Shown one piece after another: positions 50,441 through 58,306 of a stretch of 64,000 nt of DNA. The notes beneath the pieces were generated by a model. That model was not told the origin of the DNA, did no database searches, and saw nothing but the letters and a program-made list of their open reading frames with translations. The DNA is taken from assembly GCA_964016885.1 (NCBI GenBank), contig OZ024752.1, positions 49,042,001 through 49,106,000 of the forward strand. Reading direction: 5' to 3'. Position 1 is the first letter of the stretch. Every line of letters begins with the position of its first letter. Source of the DNA: Eledone cirrhosa (taxonomy: Eukaryota). Made by a program: the position numbers and the translations under genes.

Positions 50441-50557
50441 ATATATATATATATATGTGAAGTAATTCCATCGGAAAAGTCCAGGAAAAAAGAGTGCTCT
50501 ATGTAAGCAACAGAGCTTAATTATTATTATTATGTAATAAACAACATAAGGCAATTA

Positions 50558-50617
50558 TTCCATTTACCAGTGGTTTCTTAAAAGCAAAAGGTTTTGCTTT
50601 CAATCCTCAGAATGAAA
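50558..50617 (-). ncRNA. Type I hammerhead ribozyme near the PLE 3' end (sense to ORF)
   Basis: Minus strand reads TTTCATT CTGAGGA TTGAAAGCAAAA-CC-TTTTGCTTTTAA GAAA CCACTGG TA AATGGAA: intact core, long stem II, short stem III, GUA cleavage triplet, stem I closes. Confidence 0.85.
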
Positions 50618-52075
50618 AATCCTGGTTTGTTTATTGAATATGGATTCTAAAAACGAAAATGCAATCTATATGAAAGTGAGGCTGGAAAAGGGAGAAGGAA
50701 AGGAAAAATAAAATAAAATAAAACTACACATGCCAACACACACAAAAAAACCCAAAAGCATACTTACACACACACACATATATACACATATAATTTGCAC
50801 GCATACACATATACACATACACATACATATACATATATATATATATATATATATATATATACATATATATATACATACACATACATACACATATATATAT
50901 ATATAAAAAGAGCGTACACCTACACACACATACACATATATATACACACATATACACATACATATATTCATACATACACACGCACACACACACACACACA
51001 CATATACACACACACATACATATACATACACATGTACATATCCATATATATATATATATATATATATATATATATATATATATATATATACACATATATA
51101 CACATACATATACACACATATACACATATACATACACACACACACACACACACACACACACACATGTGTGTGTACAAGCCTACACATACACACACACATA
51201 TATATACACACACATATACATACGTTCACACAAACATACAACGTACATACATACACATACATGAATGCACTCCACTACATATTAACACACGCAAATAAAT
51301 ATAAGAAAAAAATATATATAAATAATATTAACAAATATTTGACAGCGATACATGCCCCAGCTAACAGGACAGACACGCGTGGTAAGTAATACACACATAA
51401 GCGCATATACATACGTTCGAAATAGTAAACACATACACACACTCTCACACATAAATATACATATACAAATACATAAACACGTACATACACATACATACGC
51501 AAACACGTACACGTATACAATATAAACACACACATGTATATGTAATTATATACACACACACACACATATACATATATATATATATATATATATATATATA
51601 TATATATATATACATACAAAAATATAAAAATATAAACGCATACACACATATAAATACGTAAACACACATATACATACATAGCTAAACAATTATACACATG
51701 CAAATACGTATATATCAAAAGAACGCACAACCAAATACAAACACACACACATATATACACACACACACACCCACACACAAACCCACACATACATAAAAAT
51801 AAATAAAAACACACGCAACATATACATACATACACGTACATATACATACATACACATATACATATACATATATATATATACACACATATATATACACAAA
51901 TACATATACATATATCTACATATACACACGTACACGTACACATACACACATGCATACACATACACACACACATATACATGTGTGTATGTGTAAAGCTCAG
52001 TATTAGATAAGACAAATGAACCTTACATAAACGTATATATAGTAGTAAAGTAATAAAGCCATACAAGGCAATTAA

Positions 52076-52133
52076 TCCATTCACCAGAGGTTTCTTAAAA
52101 GCAAAAAAAGTTTCCTTCAATCTTCAGAATGAA
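52076..52133 (-). ncRNA. Second, diverged hammerhead motif in PLE 3' UTR (GUG at cleavage site, probably inactive)
   Basis: TTCATT CTGAAGA TTGAAGGAAACTTTTTTTGCTTTTAA GAAA CCTCTGG TG AATGGA; paralog of 50558-50617. Confidence 0.7.
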
Positions 52134-52496
52134 ATATACAAATATATACACACATACAGACACGCACACACACATATACATATATACATATATATATATA
52201 TGTACATATATATATATATATATATATATATATACAGACATACATACACACATACACACACATATACACACATACATACACATATATATACATACACAAA
52301 CATATACGTACACATATACATATATACACACAAAAATACATACACATACACATAGGTATGTGAAGGGCAAAACAAAAAGAATATATGGGGTGGGGGGCCT
52401 AGAGGAGGTAAAAAATATATTTTTTAAATACAAGAGTACAGAAGGTAGAAGCAGCAAAATAAAAGCCGTAGCAAAAGTAAAGAGCAGAGAAGGAGT

Positions 52497-54848: not shown

Positions 54849-54908
54849 TTCCATTTACCAGTGGTTTCTTAAAAGCAAAAGGTTTTGCTTTCAATCCTCA
54901 GAATGAAA
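54849..54908 (-). ncRNA. Same hammerhead ribozyme in the upstream tandem copy, ~220 nt before the ORF ATG
   Basis: Repeat of 50558-50617 at +4291. Confidence 0.85.
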
Positions 54909-56366
54909 AATCCTGGTTTGTTTATTGAATATGGATTCTAAAAACGAAAATGCAATCTATATGAAAGTGAGGCTGGAAAAGGGAGAAGGAAAGGAAAAAT
55001 AAAATAAAATAAAACTACACATGCCAACACACACAAAAAAACCCAAAAGCATACTTACACACACACACATATATACACATATAATTTGCACGCATACACA
55101 TATACACATACACATACATATACATATATATATATATATATATATATATATACATATATATATACATACACATACATACACATATATATATATATAAAAA
55201 GAGCGTACACCTACACACACATACACATATATATACACACATATACACATACATATATTCATACATACACACGCACACACACACACACACACATATACAC
55301 ACACACATACATATACATACACATGTACATATCCATATATATATATATATATATATATATATATATATATATATATATATACACATATATACACATACAT
55401 ATACACACATATACACATATACATACACACACACACACACACACACACACACACATGTGTGTGTACAAGCCTACACATACACACACACATATATATACAC
55501 ACACATATACATACGTTCACACAAACATACAACGTACATACATACACATACATGAATGCACTCCACTACATATTAACACACGCAAATAAATATAAGAAAA
55601 AAATATATATAAATAATATTAACAAATATTTGACAGCGATACATGCCCCAGCTAACAGGACAGACACGCGTGGTAAGTAATACACACATAAGCGCATATA
55701 CATACGTTCGAAATAGTAAACACATACACACACTCTCACACATAAATATACATATACAAATACATAAACACGTACATACACATACATACGCAAACACGTA
55801 CACGTATACAATATAAACACACACATGTATATGTAATTATATACACACACACACACATATACATATATATATATATATATATATATATATATATATATAT
55901 ATACATACAAAAATATAAAAATATAAACGCATACACACATATAAATACGTAAACACACATATACATACATAGCTAAACAATTATACACATGCAAATACGT
56001 ATATATCAAAAGAACGCACAACCAAATACAAACACACACACATATATACACACACACACACCCACACACAAACCCACACATACATAAAAATAAATAAAAA
56101 CACACGCAACATATACATACATACACGTACATATACATACATACACATATACATATACATATATATATATACACACATATATATACACAAATACATATAC
56201 ATATATCTACATATACACACGTACACGTACACATACACACATGCATACACATACACACACACATATACATGTGTGTATGTGTAAAGCTCAGTATTAGATA
56301 AGACAAATGAACCTTACATAAACGTATATATAGTAGTAAAGTAATAAAGCCATACAAGGCAATTAA

Positions 56367-56424
56367 TCCATTCACCAGAGGTTTCTTAAAAGCAAAAAAA
56401 GTTTCCTTCAATCTTCAGAATGAA
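56367..56424 (-). ncRNA. Second hammerhead motif, tandem-copy duplicate
   Basis: Repeat of 52076-52133 at +4291. Confidence 0.7.
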
Positions 56425-56787
56425 ATATACAAATATATACACACATACAGACACGCACACACACATATACATATATACATATATATATATATGTACATAT
56501 ATATATATATATATATATATATATACAGACATACATACACACATACACACACATATACACACATACATACACATATATATACATACACAAACATATACGT
56601 ACACATATACATATATACACACAAAAATACATACACATACACATAGGTATGTGAAGGGCAAAACAAAAAGAATATATGGGGTGGGGGGCCTAGAGGAGGT
56701 AAAAAATATATTTTTTAAATACAAGAGTACAGAAGGTAGAAGCAGCAAAATAAAAGCCGTAGCAAAAGTAAAGAGCAGAGAAGGAGT

Positions 56788-58306
56788 TCAAGGCGGTTGA
56801 TTATTCGTAGGAGTGTCAATCCAGTTACAGATCAGATGCGATTTCAGATGAGGACAGCATCTGAAGATCTCAGTCTTAGAGTTAAGGCAAGCGGAAGTGT
56901 CTCTCAAGTTTAGCAAAATCCTATACTTTTCTGTGGTACACAAAGAACAATTCTTTGTGCCCCTTTGGTACTCCCTCGAATAGTCTAATATAGACCAATC
57001 AATAGAGTACGGGATATTACTATCCTTGAGATCCCATACCTTACTTGCGAGGGCCGTTGATGTTCGTTTATCTGAGTGTTTAAAAGAAGCGACATGTGAG
57101 TAAAATCTGGTTTTAAACCTGTCCTGGGTCATACCGACATATCGCTCGCTTCTGGCTGGCTGGTTGTTGATAACTGGCGTTATTTTAGCCTCATAAACGA
57201 CAGATTTTGTTTTACATTTACCCTGCAATGGGCATTCATCCGGCTTCCTGCAACTGCATCCTGGATTTATCCTCGTACGGTTTGAACTGGTGATTTTGGA
57301 TTTCATGGATGGACAACAAGAGTAGCTGATCTTAACTACATTCCTATTAAAAATCTTATAATATCTATGAATAGGAGGAAAATGTTTGTCTAATAGTTCA
57401 AGGAATTTCCTTCCTACATTAGTTTTGACATTTAGAGAGAAGGGGGGTGTGAACCAAATAATCTTCCTTTTCCTGTTATTATGGTTAGTTTTAGGGGGGG
57501 GAATAGGTAAATAAGAAATATTTTCTGTAAAACCGCTGTTCTTAAGGGCTTTATTATAATAAGGGGCGGCTTTATTAAAAATGTCTATAGACGAAGATAA
57601 AGTAGAAATCCTACGGCTAATGTTAGGAATAAGATTTTTAAAAACTATAGGGGGATGGCAAGACTCTTTGTGTATATACCTAAGATTTTCATTAGGTTTA
57701 TGATAGGGTTTAAAAGAGGCAGTAAGTAGATCAAGATTAATATCAAGAAAGTTAGCATTAGTAAGGTTCGTATCTATAGTAATTTTAAGGTTAAGATTAG
57801 CAAAGGTACTAATTAAATCTTTACGGAATTTATCAAGATTATGGCCATTGGTGGTATGAGAAACTGCTAATCCGTCATCACGGTATAAACCGATATTATG
57901 GGACGGAAATTTCTCTTTGAGTGTGTGGAGAAGGAATAATCCTACTAAGTCGCACACATCCGCACTGTCATAAGAACCCATTGCAACATCGAAAGAGTTT
58001 TCAGGGTTTGACTTTTTAACCCAAATCTTATCATTAGTAAAAAGTAAAGTTTTTCTAGCATGAAAGATAATGTCCTCTTCTAATTTGGAGATATTAATGA
58101 AGGGTCTTGCAAAATCTAAGGCTTTAGTTAATAAGGAAACGGCAATAGAAGGGTAAAAATCGACAATATCAAATTGCGTAAATCTACACTTATTTTTACC
58201 TTGTATATTATTGAACCAAGAAATAACAGAGGAAGTATTTAGCCACTGTGAAAGGACAGTGTTAGTTCTAATTTGGATAATTATTTTTCTTAAGATTTTC
58301 TTACTA
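56788..58306 (-). pseudogene. 5'-truncated duplicate of the PLE ORF (from SKKILRKII to the stop)
   Basis: Matches 52497-54015; breaks at a TA dinucleotide (tacta|tatata) directly into (TA)n. Confidence 0.9.

Follow-up and report, generated by a model that had tools for sequence, protein, structure and literature searches.

How a Penelope-like element (PLE) comes to stand in a chromosome as nearly two direct copies of itself is the question raised by a locus of Eledone cirrhosa, at positions 50458-58306 of a 64,000-nt stretch of the genome (assembly GCA_964016885.1, contig OZ024752.1, positions 49,042,001 to 49,106,000, forward strand), the whole of which is called the window here. The explanation favoured, with appreciably more confidence than doubt, is that an intact PLE of the Hydra clade was recently inserted there into a (TA)n tract, and that its 1.83-unit tandem arose through the reverse transcriptase (RT) reading one 4,291-nt RNA unit more than once. 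This is supported by microsatellite haplotypes private to the locus, while the junctions of related copies bear on how the template was primed and where it ended.

The tandem array and its template unit

Positions in the element are numbered from u1 (54748) to u4291 (50458) on the minus strand, with the ATG at u120 and the stop at u2252. The array is made up as follows:

50458..54748, minus strand: complete 4,291-nt unit; its u4291/u1 junction occurs 43 times in the genome
54749..58306, minus strand: upstream copy, u734-4291, 5'-truncated at u734, identical to the downstream copy and providing the 5' pseudo long terminal repeat (pLTR)
58305..58400: 5' junction, (TA)48 target tract of 96 nt; the upstream copy ends at 58306 on TA
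50440..50457: 3' junction, one extra CA (element sense) followed by (TA)8 of the target

Direct comparison of 50458-54015 with 54749-58306 gave 3,558 nt with zero mismatches at an offset of 4291, long microsatellites included. An earlier note, made from the letters of the window alone, had described a 3.56-kb duplication at this constant offset, a tandem of about 1.8 units and an upstream copy cut off at a TA and joined to (TA)n, all of which was borne out by the measured length of 1.83 units and by the 96-nt tract reached at 58306. The absence of any difference over 3,558 nt, despite the long microsatellites, is also what would be expected if one copy had been duplicated during assembly. Nevertheless, the repeat period equals the element unit exactly and its junction recurs throughout the genome, other tandem loci are equally identical or a few changes apart, and the 5' break meets (TA)n as in other copies, with no flank duplicated. 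The tandem is probably real, and an assembly duplication is very improbable.

In all, 139 stretches of the genome were examined, 37 selected by the open reading frame (ORF), 19 by the tandem junction and 83 by the tail described below; this last group was drawn from the first 100 of the tail's 774 places, each of them on C1. Among loci and within them, comparisons were made of microsatellite segments from the 3' region. Between loci, identical segments were rare (3/1081, 5/1035, 1/1275 and 0/231 pairs, from segments other than segment 4), whereas within loci, leaving out the L044 stretch, which holds separate insertions, 15 of 27 tandem pairs and 44 of 84 inverted pairs of segments were identical. 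In 7 of 8 loci the distance between the tandem copies was smaller than that to the nearest other locus, the values for the window being 0 and 35 units, and the arms of a given locus have locus-private substitutions in common. Since copies match within loci and differ between them, the changes should have preceded copying and both copies should come from one unit. This supports the proposal of the earlier note that the RT re-read its template, and makes an assembly artefact or a parent already carrying two units less likely.

Close direct and inverted repeats are known substrates for gene conversion and unequal exchange, which might have made the copies of a locus alike after insertion. However, identity is greatest among the youngest loci and falls off with the age of the locus, and a private junction is common to both arms of L215, so that homogenization after insertion is an improbable explanation.

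The element, its hammerhead motifs and its family

The earlier note had also announced a full RT and GIY-YIG ORF without stops or frameshifts, which is indeed present:

52497..54629, minus strand: intact ORF of 710 aa (start 54629, stop side 52497), no stop, no frameshift

The protein carries, in order, N-terminal RWK (residues 37-39) and DKT (114-116) motifs, the RT core (D251, D348, D349, with YRDD at 346-349), the thumb, a CxCx5C linker (C555-C557-C563) and, at the C-terminus, a GIY-YIG-type nuclease without CCHH. The nuclease motifs span residues 574-691, after the RT (VVY 574-576, YVG 594-596, R605, E664, N680), with CxxC at C658 and C661, CxH at C689 and H691, and no cysteine between VVY and YVG. 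Of the 8,000 candidates that were scored in a protein search, 1,009 proved to be relatives, and identity was 41-58% in the top 120. Across the 121 aligned sequences, RWK was found in 119 and DKT in 120, the nuclease residues Y576, Y594, G596, R, E and N were 96-100% conserved, and each Hydra motif present in the ORF recurred in 113-120. The domain names rest on published clade motifs and on the Atlas neighbours of the ORF, which carry HTH_animal, GIY-YIG and RVT_1; a Pfam scan of the ORF and of 10 of the 120 relatives gave no RT or nuclease family, and a sequence-profile search of the PDB with the ORF gave 2 chance matches only. An AlphaFold model of the ORF is confident (pLDDT 94), but lends the domain names no independent backing.

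A type I hammerhead motif (CTGAGGA, a long stem II, GAAAC and GTA) was read by eye at u4135-4188 of the unit, where cleavage is predicted to follow u4184. The hammerheads that the earlier note had placed 4291 nt apart were recovered in the two pLTRs:

54852..54905, minus strand: hammerhead in the 5' pLTR, GUA; predicted cut after 54856; stem III a near-palindrome
50561..50614, minus strand: hammerhead in the 3' pLTR, GUA; predicted cut after 50565
52078..52131, also 56369..56422, minus strand: second hammerhead copy with GUG at the cut site; 72 identical copies in fetched loci
50739..52029 (approximate), minus strand: microsatellite-rich 3' spacer between the two hammerhead copies

The core of the GUA hammerhead is intact in 172 identical copies. 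The GUG copy is likely not cleaved and has the look of a remnant left by an older pLTR, short end included; the spacer is probably captured host DNA. The earlier note had mentioned neither the GUG copy nor the 64-nt tail described below nor the extra CA before (TA)8. In an Rfam scan none of the 122 matches at E<=1 was a hammerhead family, only low-complexity matches being returned. Stem III is predicted not to fold in the monomer and to form a dimer duplex of -8.2 kcal/mol, for which the GUG copy would also be a pairing partner. In the older subfamily of L069 and L070 (93-95%), the internal hammerhead is less decayed but already GUG, and it has a short-end-like sequence with TA repeats behind it. 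Hammerhead-like motifs are dense in this genome: further CTGAnGA...GAAA motifs stand in the window at 9309, 17803, 19588, 20136, 20553, 25689, 31806, 35092, 36341 and 49411, of which 17803 and 35092, as well as 9309 and 19588, clearly form paired families.

Hydra PLEs have been described with RWK, DKT, a CxCx5C linker, CxxC and CxH, no CCHH, a hammerhead and (TA)n targets, and as generally shorter than 3 kb, a length given as typical rather than diagnostic (Craig et al. 2021, PMC8557442). The present element shares with that clade the single ORF joining RT and C-terminal nuclease, the type I hammerhead with a short palindromic stem III, laid out as in the Hydra ribozymes of supplementary file S2, and the insertion in (TA)n; its unit exceeds the usual length because of the 2-kb 3' region. 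Judged by its sequence motifs, it is a Hydra-clade PLE. The earlier note was right in calling it a PLE and mistaken in calling it Naiad-type: according to the same source, Naiads have an N-terminal nuclease, DKA, about 1,000 aa and no canonical hammerhead, whereas here the nuclease is C-terminal, a hammerhead is present, the motif is DKT and the protein has 710 aa, so that the element is not a Naiad. Partial tandems, inverted copies, a tail, a (TA)n preference and a length of 3.4-4.4 kb are nevertheless features that Naiads have in common with it, while their CCHH-bearing nuclease, CxC domain and fingers insertion further separate them. Penelope/Poseidon, Neptune and Nematis are set apart by a CCHH zinc finger in the nuclease and a DKG motif (Craig et al. 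2021), the ORF having no CCHH and DKT in place of DKG.

The family is new, within a known clade whose host genus, Octopus, is known as well. The nearest listed member, Hydra-1_Obim of Octopus bimaculoides, in the supplement of Craig et al. (2021), agrees, as do the TA-rich repeats of the window, with an octopus-like host; it is 2,507 bp long and is listed without a pLTR and with a different ribozyme sequence; it shares RWK, DKT, CxCx5C, CxxC, CxH, the lack of CCHH and the C-terminal nuclease, and matches 23 of the first 40 residues of the ORF, counted by eye. The 4.3-kb unit, other ribozyme stems, the second GUG hammerhead, the microsatellite spacer and many intact young copies distinguish the present family from it and from the clade. 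Penelope-like families also figure, with Hydra not named in the available part, in a recent annotation of the repeats of Octopus vulgaris (PMC13282606).

In the 3.0-Gb genome a 34-nt tail pattern has 774 exact matches and the u4291/u1 tandem junction 43, and therefore most copies are short. At least 27 of 48 matches span the whole ORF at 98-100% identity, the window included, from 40 scored out of 2,791 candidates, and 15 of the 44 full ORFs examined are intact, the window's among them. The family is young, and the very young age given in the earlier note agrees with these counts. The family is also present in four public sequencing runs, with loose (TA)n ends at both 3'-end classes. The idea that the young subfamily was absent from public run X1 was rejected, because contigs drop rare variants and the L181 flank is 99-100% identical.

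As to the locus itself, 7 of 2,320 positions set it apart from what most young copies have, and 3 of the 5 differences checked alter a residue. A 35-nt pattern with its private allele was found genome-wide only in its own two copies, and no daughter longer than about 2 kb was found in the assembly. Since no daughter was found and its ORF is one of 15 intact among 44, the description as a candidate active source element is unsupported; the locus is ordinary within its family. Elsewhere in the window, a short single-armed copy of the same family, with hammerhead and short end, lies between (TA)n runs at 19756-19885 (approximate, plus strand). Minisatellites occur at 27447-28022 (period 72 nt), 33257-33713 (46 nt), 40383-42108 (35 nt) and 45021-45601 (48 nt).

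The two 3'-end classes and the target

Insertions of the family end on their 3' side at one of two sites 64 nt apart, u4224-4231 (short) or u4291-u8 (long), which lie about 43 and 107-115 nt downstream of the GUA site; no insertion ends at the GUA site. The corresponding features are:

50458..50521, also 54749..54812, minus strand: 64-nt tail between the short and long 3'-end classes, 3' of the ribozyme
54741..54750, minus strand: long start site, u4290-u8, putative template of the (CA)n additions; loose read ends of public runs fall at 54741-54743
54813..54822, minus strand: short start site, UAA repeats, placed by 3'-end positions and public-run read ends

Among the 25 two-armed insertions selected by ORF, a set not chosen by end class, 23 joined one long to one short end (2 of them without a confirmed inversion junction), 2 were long-long and none was short-short (p=1.9e-5). 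The 83 tail-selected stretches included 50 long-short insertions (42 confirmed) and no long-long one. Twin priming, in which the enzyme starts twice on the same RNA, is the likely cause. The nuclease would nick both strands of (TA)n, and a single RNA molecule would be primed by both DNA ends, the short site being used by one of them and the long site by the other; at the locus of the window only the long-site arm would have survived. In L1 twin priming a second primer on the same RNA is used as well; here, in contrast, the two primers would start close together at fixed positions, and the 3' end is present on each arm.

Inverted arms could also be produced by fold-back of one cDNA priming itself, and in its favour the two arms hardly differ in sequence and frequently share an end position. 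Nevertheless, many loci (e.g. L122, L129, L132, L045 and L046) have a tail-less arm that extends beyond the tailed one on the 5' side, and since the tail-less arm is the longer one, fold-back fails at those loci. In L031, L032 and L042 the tailed arm starts outside the part that fold-back could copy through to the tail. Fold-back, to which the self-priming model of Arkhipova et al. (2013, PMC3846280) is related, is accordingly given little chance.

That the PLE tail is often at one end only was already known (Craig et al. 2021; Arkhipova et al. 2013), and in vitro work on a Poseidon element had revealed two RT start sites bounding the tail, with both strands extended (Frangieh et al. 2024, PMC11167929). 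What is added here is the count of end classes per insertion and their link to one template. The element of that study, PAc (Poseidon, Anolis carolinensis), resembles the present one in its two internal start sites bounding the tail downstream of the hammerhead, its AT-rich target and the use of uncut RNA as template. However, its tail has 30-40 nt and lies in the ORF, against 64 nt in the untranslated region here, and the available part of the paper reports neither a start-site difference between strands nor repeat addition, whereas the present insertions have one long and one short end and (CA)n.

Several loci show further peculiarities. Short ends of L114, L125, L153 and L178 have more TAA repeats than most templates, and slippage at the short site is possible; arms of L033, L046 and L207 stop precisely at u1, a position within the helix predicted for the long start site; and L035 and L045 each have a stop at u94. 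Short palindromes flanked by (TA)n runs, in which the arms differ in length by 77-80 nt, occur in the window at 17289-17478, 17511-17696, 35424-35599 and 58401-58592; they belong to another family with the same one-long, one-short design, and none of the long ends displayed carries CA. A third family, whose tail measures 90 nt, is represented by a palindrome at 50239-50441, and the element sits in the (TA)n at the long end of this palindrome; L143 and L205 are inserted beside the same third family.

The two classes differ in what follows them, CA being found after 84 of 132 long ends, in up to 19 units, versus 1 of 90 short ends. At 5 of 130 long ends the repeated piece of template is longer. 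The next interruption of the flank is CA at 10 of 81 CA-bearing ends, compared with 499 of 923 genuine genomic CA interruptions; as CA is rare there, the flanks behave like pure (TA)n targets. Telomerase-like stuttering, that is repeat addition, is the likely source of these runs. The long site lies immediately 3' of a predicted helix (u4182-4196 with u4282-u5, terminating at that site); there the enzyme would realign and re-copy 2-8 nt before becoming processive, and the modelled helix could act like a telomerase template boundary. Telomerase adds repeats by re-copying a short template delimited by such a boundary, and in LINEs such as the I factor and UnaL2 a short template is re-copied by 3' slippage at the start of synthesis; the additions seen here differ from both in being short and variable.

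Alternatively, (CA)n could belong to the target, the nuclease choosing TA/CA borders where TG-ended primers pair best with the long site. CA does precede 34% of background (TA)6+ runs, TG ends are able to pair with that site, and no empty target site has been seen: the fetched loci yielded 1 weak, unusable candidate from 71 insertions, and for L181 the contigs of four public runs span the flank but end before the TA run. These three facts weigh against stuttering. Nevertheless, flanks resembling pure (TA)n, run lengths different from background (p=1.6e-26), additions that repeat longer template pieces and long ends without CA that still pair with short ends make a target origin unlikely.

Putative RNA 5' ends and the nature of the long template

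On their 5' side the short copies end 60-90 nt upstream of the predicted ribozyme cut, with clusters of ends at u4095 and u4120-4121, which defines one further feature:

54919..54945, minus strand: putative RNA 5' ends u4121 and u4095, upstream of the hammerhead, from short-copy stops and extra G

In short two-armed insertions the arms end within 12 nt of each other in 26 of 35 cases (shuffled mean 8.0, p=1e-4). Arms ending at u4095, u4120 or u4121 carry an extra G or GA in 11 of 16 cases versus 11 of 68 elsewhere (p=8e-5), the hot spots having been picked after the data were seen, which counts against this result. RT adds C at a capped template end, although the literature search turned up no paper for it. 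As short-copy ends lie upstream of the ribozyme, their templates were uncut there; a linear RNA cut at the ribozyme was rejected as template, given that none of 83 first-round ends is within 5 nt of the cut site. The RNA would start in the 5' pLTR near u4095 or u4121, and on linear capped RNA both cDNAs would run off the 5' end and be linked to give short palindromes, which are the most frequent product. In some cases the enzyme may jump from end to end, leaving mini-tandems. Four of these, made of the 5' region, were found (L210 on C7, L184 on C1, L211 on C8 and L215 on C13), with units of about 220-420 nt and private junctions; the two junctions of L210 differ by one G, which fits such jumps. 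Two of the four include the hammerhead and resemble newly born retrozymes.

Long copies behave differently. Stops at u4085-4145 were found in 28 of 70 first-round arms versus 2 of 29 second-round arms, past the tandem junction (p=0.00075), the second-round count leaving out 10 of 44 junction arms without a long unit. Few second-round stops mean that long templates have no end at u4085-4145, and long and tandem copies, this locus included, would come from a template without a barrier at that 5' end. We infer two template pools. For the long copies only, the leading guess, which is given an even chance, is a unit-length circle closed at the hammerhead site. A circle as template was proposed earlier (Cervera and De la Pena 2014, PMC4209133), and retrozyme RNAs are ligated into circles at the hammerhead site (PMC7229834; bioRxiv 10.64898/2026.07.22.740005). 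As in non-LTR retrozymes and in the circle model for PLEs (Cervera and De la Pena 2014, 2020), type I hammerheads are predicted to act as dimers and circles are proposed for more-than-unit copies. In contrast to retrozymes, the present element is autonomous and its mini-tandems join at varied sites and not at the ribozyme cut.

Two other origins of the long copies have to be considered. In the first, cDNA reaching the RNA 5' end would re-anneal to the 3' pLTR of the same RNA, like retroviral strong-stop DNA, and the hammerhead would play no part. Such homology-guided strand transfer gains from the jumps seen in L210, where mini-tandem junctions are one G apart, from the derivation of short copies from uncut RNA and from the tandems that Naiads form without hammerheads (Craig et al. 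2021). However, cDNA that comes to the 5' end for the second time should stop there with the same frequency as on its first arrival, contrary to the counts above, although the second-round arms are a selected, processive set; strand transfer is therefore a tentative alternative, less probable than the circle. In the second, a linear read-through transcript of a two-unit parent would simply be copied, the scenario of Frangieh et al. (2024). The lack of arrays longer than 2.0 units and the finding that ribozyme cutting is unneeded in vitro (PMC11167929) are in its favour, and a very young parent missing from the assembly is possible case by case. Nevertheless, the units of a parent would differ in their microsatellites, whereas tandem copies match each other far better than other loci in 7 of 8 cases, and this origin is rather unlikely.

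Re-reading of one unit, preferably as a circle, is nonetheless the reading retained, and a number of points weigh against it or its parts. Microsatellite identity within loci is incomplete, as the counts of tandem and inverted pairs given above indicate; no two of the 43 junctions are one unit apart; and two long-long insertions exist. Of the second-round ends, 1 of 44 lies within 5 nt of the cut site, as against none of 83 in the first round, and the four mini-tandem junctions lie away from the ribozyme site. In the predicted monomer fold, ribozyme stem I has a pairing probability below 0.1, and the helix at the long start site, paired with the tail, covers the cut site at about 0.5; the RNA fold is no better than shuffles (13/200). 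Poseidon ribozyme mutants inserted normally, with no RNA ends at the cut site (Frangieh et al. 2024), and Naiads, as said, form the same tandems. Finally, transcription, the RNA start sites, ribozyme cutting and the circles are all deduced from genomic copies.

A combined scheme can be put forward tentatively, its chances being clearly below even. It describes a chromosome-integrating PLE with telomerase-style repeats at a helix-bounded site and with both target strands primed at two fixed sites of one RNA. There would be two template pools, capped linear RNA giving short palindromes and hammerhead-closed circles giving long tandems, and the non-cleavable second hammerhead would enable the cut in cis. 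In mainly open literature taken without supplementary figures (notably figure S2 of Frangieh et al.), neither repeat addition nor run-off ends nor a pairing of start sites within insertions was found to be reported for an endonuclease-bearing PLE.

PLEs are the sister group of telomerase, and their integration is largely unresolved, one element having been reconstituted, with later steps and the role of the hammerhead left open (Frangieh et al. 2024). The Hydra clade is very divergent and, in the literature consulted, known from sequence only (Craig et al. 2021). In this context, the interest of the locus is the mechanistic record of its family, which is young and abundant enough for its junctions to record the integration reaction. 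These junctions lead to precise, testable predictions: each target strand should have its own start site, repeats should be added at one of the two, RNA 5' ends should occupy two positions, and a single unit should be read twice. If the combined scheme were true, the PLE tail, the inverted pLTR and the partial tandem would have one account.

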